Source: Bacteroidota bacterium (GTDB lineage Bacteria > Bacteroidota > Bacteroidia > B-17B0 > Aurantibacillaceae). From it: a DNA stretch of 64,000 nucleotides. Location: NCBI GenBank assembly GCA_048498515.1, contig JBEHXV010000020.1, positions 5,474 to 69,473 on the forward strand, given 5' to 3'. Below the pieces are notes generated by a model. The model saw nothing but the letters and a program-made list of their open reading frames with translations. It was not told the DNA's origin and searched no databases. Position 1 is the stretch's first letter. Each line of letters begins with the position of its first letter. Positions 6,026 to 38,459 of the stretch are shown here, one piece after another. The translations under genes were made by a program, and so were the position numbers.

Positions 6026-7261
6026 TTATGAGTTATGAGTTGAAAGCTTATGCAAATTATAATGGATTAAAAGGCAAAAGAAAAATACAAAGAAAATAAA
6101 TCCCGCCTGCGCCTGCAACATCGACTCGACAAGGAAATTAAAAATGCAAAGCAAACTGAACAGCACCAGGATATAATTCTTTTTCACAAAGCCGTACATT
6201 GCCACGCCAAAGGTCATTATTAGTAATAGCACAATACCAATAATACCAGTTCCGATAAAGGTTTGCAGAAACTGGTTATGGGCATTGAGCTTTTTCCGCA
6301 AAGCACCTGCCAATCCTTCGCGTGTATAGGCTTCCACTAATTTATCATTCGCGTCGCCCGCTGTTGTACCAAATACAAAGTTCTGTTCAATAAGCTTAAC
6401 CGACTCTTTCCATATCAGGATCCTCACAGCGGTGCTTTCGGCATCGGTTTTATCAATGGTTTCAGTAGATTCTGTTACCCTGACGGCAGTTTTAATCCGT
6501 TCAAAAGGCGTAGGGAAAAACTTATAGGCCATGAAGATCCCGGCAAAAAGCGCAACGATTAAACCAGCAATGGTCTTTTTGTAGCCTTTGTTAAACAGAA
6601 TAGTACCAAGGGTAACAGGCAACAATAAAAAAGCGGTAATGAGCCCCATTTTTGAAGAGCATAAAAAGATGGAGATTAAGAAAACTACTGTCATAAAACC
6701 TATCTTAACAGTGAGATTGGATAAATGCGATAACCATTTAGGATAGAACAACATGATGACGAATAGCGAAAAAATAAGGTACATGGCAAAATAGCTGGGA
6801 TGCATAAAATAGCTGAATTCTGTATAAAAAAAGGCATTAAAATCTTCGAACAGGTATAAATAAAAAGCCCTGAAAATATCTATCACCGAAACCAACAAAC
6901 AACCGGATACAAAAGAGATCACGATCTTTTTGACTTCCATTTCTTTGTAATTAGTAGCGAATAGTAATAAAGGAAAAGCCAGGAAACTCAGCTTGATCTC
7001 AATAGCGGATAATGCCCCCGCTTTATCTATTGAAAAGAAATAGCCAATGGCATGAATAAAAAAGAAAGCTAACAGTACGTAGCTCCATTTATTTTTTAAT
7101 ACCCGGTTAATGCCGGCTTTTACATCGTCGAATAGGAAAAAGCAAACCGCCCAGGTTATGATAAAAATAGCGTAGTTGATGCCAAAAGGCAGGAAAAAGG
7201 CAATAAGCAATGGTAGGTTATAACCAAGCTGCAAATAAGTATGTTTAAGCTTTGCCAACAT
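6026..7261 (-). CDS. O-antigen ligase (WaaL)/Wzy_C family polytopic membrane protein
   Basis: About 10-12 predicted TM segments, a large loop, and a 'NAHNQFLQ' motif typical of O-antigen ligase-family proteins. Co-occurrence with Wzm/Wzt favours a ligase role over a polymerase role. Confidence 0.7.
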   Translation of the reverse strand: MLAKLKHTYLQLGYNLPLLIAFFLPFGINYAIFIITWAVCFFLFDDVKAGINRVLKNKWSYVLLAFFFIHAIGYFFSIDKAGALSAIEIKLSFLAFPLLLFATNYKEMEVKKIVISFVSGCLLVSVIDIFRAFYLYLFEDFNAFFYTEFSYFMHPSYFAMYLIFSLFVIMLFYPKWLSHLSNLTVKIGFMTVVFLISIFLCSSKMGLITAFLLLPVTLGTILFNKGYKKTIAGLIVALFAGIFMAYKFFPTPFERIKTAVRVTESTETIDKTDAESTAVRILIWKESVKLIEQNFVFGTTAGDANDKLVEAYTREGLAGALRKKLNAHNQFLQTFIGTGIIGIVLLLIMTFGVAMYGFVKKNYILVLFSLLCIFNFLVESMLQAQAGFIFFVFFFCLLIHYNLHKLSTHNS

Positions 7262-8477
7262 CGTTCATTAAGGTATGATAAAATTTTTGAGCAATGGTGT
7301 CACGGTTAAAATGTTGTTCCACATAAGCCCTTCCCTTTTTGCCAAGTTCTTTTCTCAATTCAGGGTCGTTTGCCAGTAACAAGACATTTTTAACCAATTC
7401 TTCTGCGTTTTCAGGTTCTGAATACAAGGCGCATTGCCCCTGGTTAACGAACAACTCCCTTGCTTCCCCATCAACAGCCAGTATCACCGGTTTTTCCATA
7501 GCCAGGTTCTCAAAAATTTTAGAAGGAATAGCGCCCAGGAACAGGTCGAGCTTGCGCAACGGAATAACCGACACATCGCTGGCCATGACTATTTGTGGCA
7601 TTTGGGTTTTAGAAACAGCATCGAAAAAATACACATTACTGAGTTCCTGCTCCTGCTTTATGGCCTGAAGCTTTTCTTTTTCGGGGCCGCTGCCCAATAA
7701 AATAAATTTAATGCCCGGCTGGTCTTTTAGTTGAGCTGCCGCCTGTAATATGATCTCTAACCCCTGGGCCAAACCAATAATACCCGCATACAGGAAAAAA
7801 ACATCGCTTTGGCTAAAACCATGTACTTTACGCCAGTCGCTGGTAATTGCCTGGGGATTGTAATAAGATACATCTACCCCATTTGGCAGCCAAAATGTTT
7901 TTACAGCTGGAAAACGCTCGTTAATGCTCTTACAAATTCCCTGCGTTTGTCCTGTTACCAATACCGATTTACGGTACAATTTTGCTTCTAAATTATACGC
8001 TAGCCGCAGCATTTGTTTATTGGTCACCACACCCAGTTTTTCAGCACTTTCGGGCCAAAGGTCGGATACGTTAAAAATAAGCTTTGCTTTCTTTTTACGT
8101 TTCAGATACATGGCCGAATATCCTAAAAACAAGGGGGGTGATTCGCAAAGGATCACATCCACCTCACCAATTTTACGGTTCCCAATTTTTGCAGAGGAAT
8201 ACACAAAGGAAAAATAATTAAGCAGGCGCTGCACAATGGATTTACTTTTTGGCAAAACAATGGAAGCACGGTGCACAGGAATTCCTTCCATCTCTTCATA
8301 CACATAGTCTTTCCCTTCATATCCCGCATAAATTTTCATTTGCGGGTAATTGGGCATGGCAGTTAAAACCGACACCTCTATTCCCAGTTTTTTCAAACGC
8401 ACTGCCAGCTCAAACAATCGGTTTTGAGGCGCACCAACTTCGGGTGGAAAATATTGGGTTAGGATTAAAAGTTTCAA
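7245..8477 (-). CDS. glycosyltransferase family 4 (WbuB-like)
   Basis: 'MKLLILTQYFPPE.GAP..R..EL...L...G.EV.VLT..PNYP' N-terminus and a C-terminal GT-B 'E..G....EA.A.GKPV' type block. Confidence 0.8.
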   Translation of the reverse strand: MKLLILTQYFPPEVGAPQNRLFELAVRLKKLGIEVSVLTAMPNYPQMKIYAGYEGKDYVYEEMEGIPVHRASIVLPKSKSIVQRLLNYFSFVYSSAKIGNRKIGEVDVILCESPPLFLGYSAMYLKRKKKAKLIFNVSDLWPESAEKLGVVTNKQMLRLAYNLEAKLYRKSVLVTGQTQGICKSINERFPAVKTFWLPNGVDVSYYNPQAITSDWRKVHGFSQSDVFFLYAGIIGLAQGLEIILQAAAQLKDQPGIKFILLGSGPEKEKLQAIKQEQELSNVYFFDAVSKTQMPQIVMASDVSVIPLRKLDLFLGAIPSKIFENLAMEKPVILAVDGEARELFVNQGQCALYSEPENAEELVKNVLLLANDPELRKELGKKGRAYVEQHFNRDTIAQKFYHTLMNDVGKA

Positions 8478-33014: not shown

Positions 33015-33782
33015 ATGACCAGGGAAGTAACACATAGATTTTCAGACAGAGTTGATAACTATATCAAATACCGTCCACATTATCCGCAGGATGTATTTGA
33101 TTATCTGAGTTCTTACAACATCATCAACCAAAGTTCTGTAATTGCCGATATTGGATCAGGGACCGGCATTTCGTCAGAACCGTTTTTAAAAATGAACCTG
33201 ACCGTTTATGCCGTTGAACCTAACACGGAAATGAGGCTTGCCGCCGAAGATCTATTAAAGAATTATAAAAATTTCAACAGTGTTGATGCTACTGCCGAAA
33301 ATACCGGTTTAAAAGACCAGTCGGTTGATGTGATTATTGCGGGACAAGCATTTCATTGGTTCGACAGGGAGAAAACCAAACAGGAATTTAAGCGCATTTT
33401 AAAACCCGGCGGTTATGTTGTTTTATTATGGAATGACCGGCAGACCGATAGCAGCGATTTTTCAAGATCATACGAAGATTTTTTACAGGCTTGTGGAACC
33501 GATTATAAAGCGGTTAATCACAAAAACGTACAGGAAAAGGAAATATTTGACTCCTTCTTTGGTGAAGGAAACTACACCGAAAAATGGTTTTACAATTACC
33601 AGGATGTTGATCTTACCGGGTTAAAAGGCCGCGTTCTCTCATCATCCTACATGCCTAACGAAGGGCATACCGATTATGAATACATGATGTACTGTTTAAA
33701 AAAAGTATTTGCAAGGTATCAGCAAAACAACACAGTACGCCTGGATTATGATACCAAAATTTATTACGGAAAATTACATTGA
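33015..33782 (+). CDS. class I SAM-dependent methyltransferase
   Basis: Motif I '[10 protein letters not shown]', '[13 protein letters not shown]' and '[12 protein letters not shown]' (Methyltransf_11/25-like). Confidence 0.8.
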
Positions 33783-33795
33783 AATAAAAACTTAT

Positions 33796-36700
33796 ATGAC
33801 CTCCGACATTAAACAAGAATTGGAAAAAAGGGTATTGGTGATTGATGGCGCCATGGGCTCCATGATACAACAATATAAACTCACTGAAAAGGATTTCAGA
33901 GGCAAACGCTTTGCCGACTGGCATAAGGACCTGCAAGGCAATAACGACTTGCTGTCTATTACGCAACCACAGATCATTAAAACCATTCATAAAGAATATC
34001 TAAAAGCGGGCGCCGATATTATTGAAACTAACACCTTTAGTGATACAACCATTGCCATGGCTGATTATGACATGCAGGAGTTTGTATACGAACTGAATTA
34101 TGAATCGGCAAAAATTGCCAAAGAGGCCATTGCTGAATTTAAAATTGAATTCCCGGAGTTTGCTTCCGTTCCCAAATTTGTGGCCGGAGCCATCGGGCCA
34201 ACCAACCGTACCTTGTCTTTATCACCAAATGTAAACGATCCCGGTTTCAGAGCTATTACCTTTGACGAGCTGGCAGAAGCCTACACGGAACAGGTTCGTG
34301 GATTGATTGATGGTGGTGCCGACCTGTTATTGATTGAAACTATTTTTGATACCCTGAATGCCAAAGCCGCCTTATACGCCATACAAAATTACTGTCAGAA
34401 AATTGATAAGAAAATGCCGGTTATGGTTTCGGGAACCATAACCGATGCCAGCGGAAGAACCTTATCGGGCCAAACTACCGAAGCCTTTTTAAATTCCGTA
34501 TCACACGTTGATCTGCTAAGCGTTGGTCTGAATTGTGCCCTGGGCGCTAAGGACATGCGTCCTTACCTCGAAGAACTTTCGAATAAAGCGCCATTTTATG
34601 TCAGTGCATACCCTAATGCCGGCTTGCCCAACCAATTTGGCGAGTACGACCAGGACGCACATGAAATGGGCCACCAGATAGAGGATTTTTTAAAAGCGGG
34701 ATTTTTAAACATTGTTGGCGGCTGCTGTGGCACTACACCGGCACACATTAAACGCATTGCCGAAATTGCCAAAGATGCCAAGCCCCGTAAAAAACCTCAG
34801 CCTGATACGCTAATGCATTTAAGTGGTTTAGAGCCCTATACGCTAACGCCTGAAAGTAACTTTTTAAATGTAGGCGAGCGTACCAATGTAACCGGTTCTA
34901 AAAAATTTCTGCGCTTAATTAAAGAAGGTAATTTTGAAGAAGCCCTATCCATTGCCAAAGAACAGGTTGATGGCGGCGCGCAGGTCATTGATGTGAACAT
35001 GGATGAAGGGATGCTGGACAGTGAACAATCCATGACCACTTTTTTAAACCTGATAGCCTCTGAACCTGATATTTCAAGGGTACCAATCATGATCGATTCC
35101 AGTAAATGGACGGTAATTGAAGCCGGGTTGAAATGCGTGCAGGGAAAAGCAATTGTAAACTCTATTTCCTTAAAAGAAGGCGAGGAAAAATTTATTGAAC
35201 AGGCCCTGAAAATAAAACAATACGGCGCAGCTGTTATTGTGATGGCCTTTGACGAAGTTGGACAGGCCGATACCCTGGAGCGCAGAAAAGAAATTTGTAA
35301 ACGTGCCTATGACATTTTAGTTGATAAAGTAAATTTCCCGGCACAGGATATTATTTTTGATCCTAATATTTTCCCTGTAGCCACAGGAATGGAAGAACAC
35401 CGCTTAAACGCGCTCGATTTTTTCAATTCTACCAAATGGATCAAAGAAAATTTACCACATGCCAAAGTGAGCGGTGGCGTGAGTAACGTATCGTTTTCAT
35501 TCAGGGGGAACGACCATGTGCGTGAGGCCATCCACGGCGCTTTCCTGTACCATGCTGTAAAAAATGGCATGGACATGGGAATTGTTAACCCGGCACAATT
35601 GCAGGTTTACGATGATATTGACAAAACTTTGCTGGAACTGGTAGAAGATGTGTTACTGAACCGCAGGGACGATGCCACTGAACGCCTGGTGGAACACGCC
35701 GAATCGTTAAAAGGCATTACCAAAGAAAAAACGGAGAAAGATGAGGAATGGAGAAAAGGAACGGTTGAAGAGCGCTTAAGCCATGCCCTGGTAAAAGGTT
35801 TGGTAGAATACATTGATAGTGATACCGAAGAGGCACGACAAAAATTAGGAAGACCATTACACGTGATTGAAGGGCCGTTAATGGCCGGCATGAACGTAGT
35901 TGGCGACCTGTTTGGCAGCGGAAAAATGTTCTTACCGCAAGTGGTAAAAAGTGCCCGTGTAATGAAAAAAGCGGTAGCTTACCTGGAACCTTACCTATTG
36001 AAAGAAAAAGAAGAAAATGCCAAAGCCGGAATTGTGAGTGCCGGAAGAACCAATGCCGGCAAGATTTTAATGGCAACCGTAAAAGGCGATGTGCATGACA
36101 TTGGCAAAAACATTGTGGGCGTTGTGCTGGCCTGTAACAATTACGAGATCATTGACCTTGGCGTGATGGTAAGCTGTGACAAAATTTTAGAAGAAGCAAA
36201 AAAACACGAAGTGGATGTTATTGGCCTGAGTGGCTTAATTACGCCATCGCTTGATGAAATGGTGCATGTAGCCAAAGAAATGGAGCGGTTAAATTTCAAA
36301 ACCCCCTTATTAATTGGTGGCGCTACAACCTCTAAGGTGCATACAGCCGTTAAAATTGCGCAAAATTATTCGGGGCCGGTAGTGCATGTAAACGATGCCA
36401 GTAAATCGGTACCTGTTGCCAGCAGCCTCATCTCACGGGAATTACGCGATGCATTTATGTCCGACGTAAATAAAGATTATGAGCGTGTGCGTGAACAAAA
36501 TAAAAATGCGCAATCGCAAAACAAGCTGATCTCATTGGCGGAAGCAAGAGAAAATAAATTTCCGATTGACTGGGCTAAAACAGAAATCGTAAAACCAGCC
36601 TTCACAGGCAATAAAGTATTTGACAATTACGATCTGAGCGAAATTGCCGAATACATTGACTGGACCCCCTTCTTTCACAGTTGGGAAATGAAAGGTTCTT

Positions 36701-37950
36701 ATCCTAAAATTTTAAAAGATCCTGAACGTGGTGCTGAGGCCAATAAATTATTTAATGACGCACAGCAAATGCTAAAAAAAATAATTACTGAAAAATGGCT
36801 GACAGCAAAAGCAGTCATTGGCATCTATCCTGCCAATACAGTAAACCACGATGACACGGAAGTATATGATGAAAGCGGAAAAACCATTACCACATTCTAT
36901 TCGTTACGTCAGCAAAGTAAAAAACCGGCCGGACAATACAACGTGGCTTTGTCGGATTTTATAAAACCAAAAGACCTCACCCCTAACCCCTCTCTAAAGG
37001 AGAGGGGGACCGGATACAACTCCGGTCGGTTCTCGTCGGCACCGAACTATTTTTTAAGTTCAGAGGCAGACTGGGCTAATACAATTGATTATGCAAAAGA
37101 AAACAGAAAAAACCCTACAAAAGCAGAAGGCATATTATGGGATGCTTTAAGGAATAAAAAGCAGAATTACAAATTCAGAAGACAACACCCGATCAAACAA
37201 TTCATTCCTGACTTTGTGTGTATTGAAAAACGTCTGATAATTGAAGTTGATGGTTCCATTCATTTAAAGCAAAAAGAGAAAGACGAGAACCGGACCACAG
37301 AATTAAATAATCTCGGTTTTGATGTTATACGATTCACGAATGATGAAGTTGAAAATAACCTGGATAAAGTATTGGAAACAATTACAGAAGTTCTAAACTC
37401 CCCCCTCTCCTTTGGAGAGGGGCCGGGGGTGAGGTCCACCGACTACATAGGCGCTTTTGCCCTCACCACCGGGATTGGTATTGATGAGCACGTGGCCCGT
37501 TTTGAAGCCGACCACGATGATTACAGTGCCATTATGCTAAAAGCCCTGGCCGACCGTTTAGCAGAAGCCTTTGCGGAATTGATGCATAAAAAAGTACGTA
37601 AAGAGTTTTGGGGCTACGCCAAAAATGAGGATCTGAAAAATGAAGAATTGATTAAGGAAGAATATGCCGGTATTCGTCCTGCACCGGGCTACCCTGCCCA
37701 GCCCGACCATACCGAAAAGAACACGATCTGGAAATTGCTGGACGTGGAAAAGAACGCCGGAATTATTTTAACCGAAAGCCTGGCTATGGTGCCTACTGCG
37801 GCGGTAAGCGGCTTGTATTTTGCCCATCCCCAATCGCACTATTTCGGGATTGGCAAATTAAATAAAGAGCAGATTGAAGATTATGCCAGACGCAAAAACA
37901 TGAGTGTGGAAGCGGTTGAACGCTGGCTGGGAAGCGTATTGGCTTATTAA
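33796..37950 (+). CDS. metH: cobalamin-dependent methionine synthase carrying a 155-codon in-frame DUF559 cassette
   Basis: Hcy-binding N-terminus '[11 protein letters not shown]', pterin-binding region, B12 motif '[11 protein letters not shown]', and reactivation-domain 'DYIGAFA', '[22 protein letters not shown]' and 'IRPAPGYPA'. The ATG at 33796 is preferred over the track start at 33709, which overlaps the upstream gene. Length is 1384 aa against about 1227 aa for a typical MetH. Confidence 0.95.
36973..37010 (+). repeat. left terminal inverted repeat of the DUF559 cassette (contains hairpin 36987-37007)
   Basis: GACCTCACCCCTAACCCCTCTCTAAAGGAGAGGGGGAC. It matches the reverse complement of 37399-37437 at about 32 of 36 aligned positions. 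Confidence 0.85.
37399..37437 (+). repeat. right terminal inverted repeat of the DUF559 cassette (contains perfect 9-bp hairpin 37402-37422)
   Basis: TCCCCCCTCTCCTTTGGAGAGGGGCCGGGGGTGAGGTCC. CCCCTCTCC-TTT-GGAGAGGGG is self-complementary. Confidence 0.85.
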
Positions 37951-37958
37951 CAGATGGT

Positions 37959-38459
37959 ATGACAGTAGAAACTCTTGTTAAAACGCTTGATTTATTGCCC
38001 CATCCGGAAGGTGGGTATTATAAGGAAACGTACCGTTCGCCTCTGAAATTGTCGGCGCAATGTTTGCCGTCTGATTTTAGCGGAGAAAGAAATATTGCCA
38101 CGGGCATTTACTTCCTGATTGAAAAAGGAAACTTCTCCGCTTTACATAAAATTAAAAGCGACGAAACCTGGCATTTTTATTTTGGCGACGCGCTTGATGT
38201 TATTGAGATTGACGAAACAGGGAATTTAAAAATAACGGCTATTGGTTCGGATCTTTTAAAACGAGAATCGTTTCAATATACCGTAAAAGCCAATACCTGG
38301 TTTGGGTCGAGAGTGAGATCAGGCGGCAATTTTTCTCTCGTTGGTTGTACGGTTTATCCCGGCTTTGATTTTGCTGATTTTGAAATGGCCAAACGATCCG
38401 TCCTCATCAACCAATTTCCTCAACACACAAGCATTATTACCGAATTAACAAGGATTTAA
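37959..38459 (+). CDS. cupin (DUF985) family protein
   Basis: The 'L.PHPEGGYYKETYRS' N-terminus is diagnostic of DUF985 cupins. The gene starts 8 nt after the metH stop. Confidence 0.8.
   Translation: MTVETLVKTLDLLPHPEGGYYKETYRSPLKLSAQCLPSDFSGERNIATGIYFLIEKGNFSALHKIKSDETWHFYFGDALDVIEIDETGNLKITAIGSDLLKRESFQYTVKANTWFGSRVRSGGNFSLVGCTVYPGFDFADFEMAKRSVLINQFPQHTSIITELTRI

Follow-up and report, generated by a model that had tools for sequence, protein, structure and literature searches.

Conserved genes are known to be invaded by inteins with homing endonuclease domains, by Vsr-like homing endonucleases and by short palindromic repeats that are tolerated as extra peptide. Each of these systems resembles in part an insert that lies in metH, the gene for cobalamin-dependent methionine synthase (MetH), on a 64,000-nucleotide stretch of DNA from a Bacteroidota bacterium (this whole stretch is called the window hereafter). 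The insert encodes a DUF559 nuclease domain between terminal inverted repeats (TIRs), and we consider it probable that it is one copy of a selfish DUF559 cassette family that occurs widely in Bacteroidota, lacks a start and a stop codon, is bounded by TIRs and persists in frame. Like inteins, the cassette would be a selfish in-frame insertion in conserved housekeeping genes with a patchy distribution, sites that are re-used across taxa and a nuclease as cargo, and the cassettes' pattern of gain, decay, loss and re-invasion resembles the intein homing cycle. Unlike inteins, it has neither a Hint domain nor intein junction residues, it carries DUF559 instead of a LAGLIDADG or HNH endonuclease, it has TIRs and cargo-free derivatives, and its segment apparently stays in the protein.

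A first-pass annotation of the window, made from the sequence alone, had likened the insert to Rickettsia palindromic elements (RPEs), and the comparison is apt in that cargo-free copies of the palindrome lie in frame in unrelated genes. RPEs and intragenic repetitive extragenic palindromes (REPs) are likewise short palindromes in frame in functional genes, where they are tolerated as extra peptide (PMC3733652). They have no coding cargo, whereas the cassette ends bound a nuclease domain of 100 residues under purifying selection; the phylum here is Bacteroidota, and the likeness to RPEs considered here is one of design. Vsr-like (EDxHD) homing endonucleases (I-Bth0305I, the "fractured genes", PMC2677866; PDB 3R3P) belong to the same fold clan, in which the intron homing endonuclease I-Bth0305I falls into one clade with Vsr, DUF559 and DUF2726 (PMC3424549). 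Putative homing endonucleases of this type also invade conserved genes, and hairpins have been noted beside their open reading frames (ORFs) (PMC2677866). However, these are free-standing ORFs in group I introns or between split-intein halves that break the host gene in two, whereas the host of the cassette is one continuous ORF, the nuclease frame brings neither start nor stop with it and the sequence similarity is weak (E=0.003).

Two further systems are close in layout. REPtrons and TIRtrons, in which a RAYT or TIRYT gene is flanked by REPs or TIRs, also place a small gene between inverted palindromic units and have many cargo-free copies, and the outer arm of the cassette fits the GGGGWSAS motif of such elements. 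In contrast, the cassette cargo is a PD-(D/E)XK nuclease and not an HUH/Y1 transposase, and the cassettes are mostly intragenic and in frame, not intergenic. Autonomous TIR transposons with their MITEs (miniature transposable elements that have inverted repeats) share with the cassettes the TIRs, a range of sizes in which the cargo is present or missing and a high copy number in some genomes, but the cassettes show no target-site duplication, and DUF559 is their only cargo, with neither a DDE enzyme nor any other known transposase. To our knowledge, a Vsr-like nuclease of roughly 100 residues is not known to catalyse transposition. A search of the full-text literature, with most subscription journals outside its reach, found no publication on in-frame DUF559 cassettes, in keeping with the earlier impression that none had been described. 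The ingredients are known singly (in-frame palindromes, Vsr-fold homing endonucleases and inteins in the same niche), and it is their combination that appears new: a TIR-bounded nuclease cassette, without start or stop, in frame in essential genes and without splicing. If this is true, a selfish nuclease gene would have a third way to live in an essential gene, as a tolerated extra domain, next to RNA splicing by introns and protein splicing by inteins.

The metH insert, its nuclease and its ends

The first-pass annotation had described a continuous metH frame in which an insert bounded by inverted repeats, and free of in-frame stop and ATG codons, parts two blocks of the reactivation domain, and each element of that description was borne out (Table 1). 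The region is one ORF, in which the 155 extra codons sit between 'ALSDFIKPK' and the next MetH block; orthologues without the insert join the two blocks by as little as 'PK-GKQ-DY', and removal of the insert leaves 1229 aa, as had been calculated. Pfam detects all five MetH domains in the window's protein, with the activation domain (PF02965) broken into two stretches by the insert. A public gene call on the same contig (NCBI GCA_048498175.1, JBEHYM010000004.1) gives the same 1384 aa from the same ATG, which agrees with the N-termini of MetH orthologues; the mechanical ORF begins at a TTG 29 codons 5′ of it (window positions 33709-33795). Compared with the insert-free locus L005, the host-only part of metH has a proportion of nonsynonymous differences (pN) of 0.042 against a proportion of synonymous differences (pS) of 0.78, so the host is under purifying selection. 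The reading that 'DYIG' holds the tyrosine of the S-adenosylmethionine site was dropped, since the RxxxGY motif lies about 80 residues downstream.

The openness of the insert is specific to one frame. In the MetH frame there are no stops and no Met codons, compared with 4-15 stops in the other five frames, and an open frame arose in just 4 of 200,000 composition-matched shuffles of the insert; the first-pass annotation had called 155 open codons unlikely without selection. The G+C content is 36% in the interior and 66% in the ends. The first residues are DLTPN and the last are GVRS, followed by T at the junction.

The interior encodes the blocks of the DUF559/Vsr fold, as the first-pass annotation had recognised: PF04480 matches with E=1e-35 and 122 bits (cut-off 20.6) over profile positions 4-108 of 109. 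The window's domain has the complete set of motifs (FRRQ, PDF, EVDG-x2-H and D-x2-R), and the catalytic-type motifs (D-F, E-x-D-G-x2-H, D-x2-R) are invariant across 65 embedded relatives. Matches in the PDB are 3HRL (E=8e-20) and 3R3P, which is I-Bth0305I (E=0.003). AlphaFold, applied to the activation domain together with its insert (mean pLDDT 67), models the DUF559 core as a folded alpha/beta unit with pLDDT 63-93 and the translated ends as two segments that join the core to the host; these have pLDDT <50 and are therefore predicted to be disordered linkers. DNA damage in Caulobacter is caused in vivo by a DUF559 protein (PMC12907096).

The two inverted repeat arms are 36 nt long and 89% complementary. 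No further copy of the inverted repeat is present in the window, where 0 matches are expected by chance, and no other repeat type or cassette copy was found there. Inside each arm lies a separate 8-bp hairpin, CCCCTCTC-N5-GAGAGGGG, a feature that the first-pass annotation did not contain. The same arm, spacer and hairpin architecture is common to the elements of L004 and L126 and to about 30 elements of other genomes, and the ends of the family, each of about 36 nt, can be written as [ACCTCACCCC]-N3-[CCCCTCTC-N5-GAGAGGGG]. The right outer arm is compatible with GGGGWSAS, which has been reported as a motif in the TIRs that accompany RAYT-like genes (PMC3733652).

Table 1. Position of metH, the cassette and the parts of the cassette in the window
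Feature	Position	Strand	Remarks
metH (cobalamin-dependent methionine synthase), cassette host	33796..37950	+	1384 codons + stop; single ORF; five MetH Pfam domains
In-frame cassette	36973..37437	+	465 nt = 155 codons; no stop, no Met; without counterpart in nearest orthologues
Left TIR	36973..37008	+	translated as 12 residues
Left TIR, outer arm	36973-36983	+	GACCTCACCCC
Left TIR, spacer	36984-36986	+	TAA, 3 nt
Left TIR, hairpin	36987-37007	+	CCCCTCTC-TAAAG-GAGAGGGG
Extra 7-bp perfect hairpin, linker-coding part	37008..37027	+	GACCGGA-TACAAC-TCCGGTC; directly 3′ of left repeat; not conserved in L004 cassette
DUF559 (Vsr-like PD-(D/E)XK) predicted nuclease domain	37084..37395	+	insert residues 38-141; PF04480
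Right TIR	37401..37436	+	translated as 13 residues
Right TIR, hairpin	37402-37422	+	CCCCTCTC-CTTTG-GAGAGGGG
Right TIR, spacer	37423-37425	+	CCG
Right TIR, outer arm	37426-37436	+	GGGGTGAGGTC

Distribution among MetH orthologues and other genes

The cassette is patchily present in MetH. Among the 120 best orthologues (from uncultured Bacteroidota or Bacteroidia, with inserts masked when host identity was computed), PF04480 is present in 28; by alignment, 22 proteins carry the cassette in the loop used in the window (site A), 6 carry it in the linker between the cap and the B12 domain, about 310 residues upstream of A (site B), and the rest have no cassette. The host part of the window's MetH is 95.7% identical to the insert-free proteins P0101 and P0102, and only 84-89% identical to each of the 22 other site-A carriers. 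A neighbour-joining tree of the hosts nests the window in an insert-free clade and scatters the site-B carriers, one of which (P0103) has a host 97.6% identical to that of the insert-free P0109. The first-pass annotation had predicted that the 155 residues would be missing from orthologues, and the closest MetH indeed has no insert; the alternative that it had named, an ancestral segment without TIRs throughout the clade, was not found. Presence/absence polymorphism at one site among close relatives and re-use of sites across taxa, the distribution by which homing genes are recognised, are both seen here. Gene order around metH is conserved among the loci retrieved, so the loci compared are orthologues.

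Site A has received cassettes of three lineages. A1 consists of the window and L004, which are 82% identical in the core and have free-standing genes as nearest relatives. A2 is the sister of cassettes in leucyl-tRNA synthetase (LeuRS), with 58-63% identity, and A3 is a separate lineage with other end sequences on the same arm, spacer and hairpin design. P0134 (A3) and P0118 (A2) carry different lineages in hosts that are 97.2% identical. At L126, the A2 cassette is followed by '...GGAGAGGGGTGT' directly before GAC, which matches the last ~12 nt of the right end in L127, an end of the A3 type, so one cassette landed in or replaced an older one. The loop itself varies naturally, with 3-18 residues between 'PK' and 'DY' among orthologues, and its flank reads 'DFIKPK' in carriers and 'DFVSPK' in the nearest empty alleles, a hint of flank co-conversion at the protein level only. 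The 4-15 extra residues at site A of some insert-free MetH proteins were considered as remnants of excision and rejected, since those of L005 ('DVTSSGVEKK'), the one case with DNA to compare, contain no palindrome and do not resemble the ends.

Further positions in MetH come from two metagenome fragments: the cassette of P0045 (L002) lies at site B or close to it, and that of P0040 (L001) occupies a third site, some 25 residues upstream of A. The metH fragment of L001 also has an in-frame TAA (856-858) where orthologues have Leu, so it is a pseudogene or contains a sequencing error, and two inverted cargo-free units lie about 70 nt apart downstream of it (1255-1385). Upstream of the truncated metH of L002 (1-617) is unrelated, G+C-richer sequence that reflects either a chimeric contig or a real rearrangement.

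The first-pass annotation had asked whether the cassette and its TIRs occur anywhere else, and they were found in frame in other genes. A scan with the single repeat unit CCCCNNNCCCCTCTCNNNNNGAGAGGGG, with one genome per species, retrieved at least 120 loci. Almost all are from Bacteroidota, with cultured Hymenobacter, Segatella, Arcicella, Capnocytophaga and Flavobacterium among them, and the contigs reach 4.6 Mb, which excludes an assembly artefact for the element family. For the insertion itself, its occurrence in many independent assemblies, including long contigs, argues indirectly against the chimera that had been raised as a caveat. A DUF559 copy is present at 16 of the loci, in 15 of these within about 500 nt of a unit, and 14 of the 16 copies are embedded in long stop-free ORFs. 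By Pfam, 10 of the 14 embedded copies are in LeuRS, where they occupy two loops; 2 are in MetH (one at site B, the other at a new site that separates the first domain from the second), 1 is in an IcmF-like fusion of B12-binding, MeaB and mutase domains and 1 is in chorismate synthase. The first LeuRS loop is the beta-hairpin that leads into the CP1 editing domain, with the cassette between '...xF' and 'xxVFTTRPDT' and junctions that differ by a few codons. The second follows the editing domain, with the cassette between '...GEGPLANIxEW' and 'KRETSTMPG'; its flanks are identical in L015, L098 and L057, and L104 aligns to the same site.

Selection by protein similarity alone gave a further sample of 6 metagenome loci. 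Two lie in the same LeuRS loop. Another two, L132 and L133, are identical in sequence and free-standing, and their 42-nt ends follow the same design; of the last two, one stands free and lacks clear ends, and the other has decayed. An exhaustive HMMER search of 1.84 billion representatives returned 22,274 relatives at E<=1e-3. Among the best 150 of these, 65 are at least 250 aa long with an internal DUF559, in hosts such as LeuRS, MetH, chorismate synthase, TsaD, RecJ, Lhr, glycosyltransferases and restriction-modification (R-M) proteins. In P0222 (1214 aa, with two DUF559 stretches) and 8 other representatives, DUF559 is fused to R-M modules (Type_ISP_C, Eco57I, N6_Mtase), where it has the look of a genuine R-M nuclease domain and not of a mobile insert.

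A few unit loci have labels from outside the phylum: L099 (contig CALQCV020000062.1), L006, L018, L037 and L074 are assigned to Candidatus Nitrotoga, Betaproteobacteria, Deltaproteobacteria, Sphingomonas and Hyphomonas. L099 has a MetH cassette of the type seen in P0045 and P0040. These labels could reflect binning contamination or a genuinely wider spread.

Selection, persistence and mobility

Comparison of the window and L004 cassettes, and of their MetH hosts, provides evidence that the nuclease is maintained. The whole cassette has pS 0.63 and pN 0.12 (dN/dS about 0.09), and the nuclease core has pS 0.72 and pN 0.11, next to pS 0.77 and pN 0.10 for the MetH hosts of the same pair. The nuclease core is thus under purifying selection and constrained as strongly as MetH. 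Cassettes in LeuRS give dN/dS of 0.16-0.25. The two ends differ less at both kinds of site (pS 0.17-0.20, pN 0.03-0.07) than the adjacent linker (pS 0.87, pN 0.22). At conserved residues, codons are identical in 20/24 cases in the ends versus 52/100 elsewhere (p=0.006), which indicates that the ends are constrained as nucleic acid, beyond the peptide that they encode. Dating the window's gain by synonymous divergence was tried and abandoned, as synonymous sites are already saturated (pS 0.77) when the host proteins are still 94-96% identical, and gains are therefore not datable.

The insert-free orthologues and the cassettes in other conserved genes support the proposal of the first-pass annotation that a mobile element parasitises a conserved gene by becoming a loop domain, and they make the finding more general than first supposed. 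Persistence in frame can be pictured as follows. The C/G-rich ends are poor in stop codons, the unit length is a multiple of three and landing is in length-variable loops, so that the host gene remains one ORF. The cassette would then be translated as an extra, independently folded domain on Pro/Gly-rich linkers encoded by the ends. Where an insertion struck an essential gene in the wrong frame or orientation, it would be lost, which would leave the surviving ones in frame. Probably, the segment stays in the mature protein as a tethered domain. This is suggested by the continuity of the frame on both sides, the absence of a Hint domain or an Rfam intron and a plausible AlphaFold model of a domain on a loop.

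How the cassette moves is a more tentative matter. By analogy with homing systems, the DUF559 nuclease itself could well drive mobility by a homing-type spread, a proposal to which we give something just short of even weight. Produced only within the host protein, the nuclease would cleave alleles that lack the cassette, or palindromes that lack a cargo, and repair would then copy the cassette in. Occasional ectopic events would carry cassettes between genes, and cassettes would turn over, with one succeeding another at the same loop and decay leaving palindromes without cargo. A broader formulation, which we put forward as a possibility rather than an expectation, is that DUF559 nucleases are the mobility enzymes of an unrecognised class of elements that is TIR-bounded and free of start and stop codons, occupies the intein niche (conserved loops of essential genes) without splicing, is expressed only as part of host proteins and spawns in-frame palindromic "MITEs".

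Such a function would matter beyond metH. It offers a testable role for DUF559, a very large family of unknown role, and if DUF559 proteins are mobility enzymes, a biological role would follow for a large part of the family, with its 22,274 cluster representatives at the threshold given above. The cassettes also explain unannotated inserts of about 150 residues in MetH, LeuRS, chorismate synthase and other Bacteroidota enzymes, and such inserts affect gene calling, orthology and structure prediction. For protein engineering they provide natural maps of permissive loops together with ready-made Pro/Gly linkers, and if the nucleases prove site-specific, they would form a new pool of compact (~100 aa) sequence-specific nucleases.

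Cargo-free units and rival explanations

The palindromic ends also occur without a nuclease. Elements that share ends form a continuous size series (30 convergent pairs of 67-625 nt), in which those that lack a cargo measure 67-270 nt and those that carry DUF559 measure 423-625 nt, and cargo-free versions span 49-270 nt overall. Solo units are complete palindromes of about 49 nt with the order arm-N3-hairpin-N3-arm. Bases in the spacers and loops vary between elements and usually agree between the two ends of one element. At the scanned loci, 149 of 171 units do not adjoin DUF559, and 45 of these 149 lie inside stop-free ORFs of at least 300 aa. Their hosts, by Pfam, include a nonribosomal peptide synthetase, alpha2-macroglobulin, an FAD oxidase, HsdR, dipeptidyl peptidase IV, a C39-ABC transporter and a histidine kinase. 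The LeuRS gene of L065 has one cassette and three solo units, one of them at the exact cassette site of other taxa. Viral contigs have units in 87 stretches, with up to a dozen or more per contig; no DUF559 lies beside the 115 viral units, and no close relative of the cassette was found in the viral contigs.

Several observations weigh against homing driven by the nuclease. The flanks of about 30 elements show neither a target-site duplication nor a common target motif, and the insertion points in the pre-editing loop of LeuRS differ by a few codons, so that loose targeting of loops or drift of the junctions fits better than strict homing to a single site. The 64-kb window has a single cassette copy, and, given the saturation of synonymous sites, the window's copy may descend from an ancient gain followed by many losses. 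The viral copies that have no DUF559 nearby and the match of the outer arm to the motif reported for TIRs around RAYT-like transposase genes suggest that another enzyme may move the ends.

The main rival builds on this last point. It holds that the palindromic ends are the real mobile unit (like a REP, RPE or MITE), moved in trans by, for example, a RAYT or TIRYT tyrosine transposase, and that DUF559 is a passenger or a homing gene that secondarily shelters in the palindrome. The cargo-free units far outnumber the cassettes and sit in many genes, and the outer arm GGGGTGAG fits GGGGWSAS of TIRs that flank RAYT-like genes (PMC3733652). At L096, from a Prevotellaceae metagenome-assembled genome (MAG), two cargo-free elements (6083-6166 and 7825-7909) are flanked by GTAGAG...CTCTAC. 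A GTAG tag is typical of REPs recognised by RAYT transposases. A different small gene, for a DUF2695 protein, stands between the two inverted units of L058 (2572-3056, Hymenobacter MAG); it is an ordinary gene with its own start, stop and terminator-like hairpin and is probably merely flanked by two solo units. Regardless of these points, we regard the rival as unlikely, if clearly the strongest of those considered. A crude check of 120 loci saw no tyrosine-transposase-like ORF between or beside unit pairs. A passenger DUF559 should decay, yet dN/dS is about 0.09-0.25 and the catalytic motifs are invariant. The repeat-associated DUF559 copies (14 of 16) lie within conserved genes and not between genes, and in other DUF559 lineages the ends keep this design but differ in sequence, which suggests that ends and nuclease co-evolve.

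Another reading is that the insert is a lineage-specific accessory domain that serves the host, such as a nuclease for repair or regulation that is tethered to MetH, with vertical inheritance and repeated loss. Purifying selection equal to that on MetH would be in line with it, synonymous saturation leaves room for an old origin and DUF559 is also a bona fide domain of R-M proteins (Type ISP, Eco57I). We consider it very improbable all the same, given that the same cassette and ends occur in functionally unrelated enzymes, that three unrelated lineages use one loop and are swapped between 97%-identical hosts, that the domain is missing from the closest orthologues and that conservation of the inverted ends at the nucleotide level has no role in a plain protein domain.

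Equally slight is the prospect that the cassette is removed before the protein matures, by RNA excision through pairing of the ends, by non-canonical protein splicing or by proteolysis; we know of no such excision mechanism in bacteria, and RNA or DNA excision needs no open downstream frame, whereas in every embedded copy the frame is open on either side. The ends can indeed pair over 36 nt, which would bring the junctions together, and in animals inverted-repeat pairing is reported to trigger RNA excision of transposons (PMC12779559), but Pfam finds DUF559 (and MTES_1575) only and no Hint or intein domain, the segment starts with DLT and lacks a C-terminal HN or other intein junction residue, and Rfam has no match at E<=1 on either strand of positions 36300-38100. 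A group I or group II intron or a ribozyme was rejected on the same Rfam result and on the frame being open on both sides of the insert.

Returning to the units themselves, two regular arrangements were seen. Among the viral contigs (L134-L213), some of which are rich in units, such as IMGVR_UViG_3300049015_000086 and IMGVR_UViG_3300028586_000777, L197 has a regular array of units with a period of about 335 nt. In a Deltaproteobacteria MAG, L047 (4904-5616) has 5.9 tandem copies of a 120-nt repeat that are 97% identical and contain one unit each; the array lies within a stop-free frame of 331 codons and may be an array of units, a repeat protein or something else.

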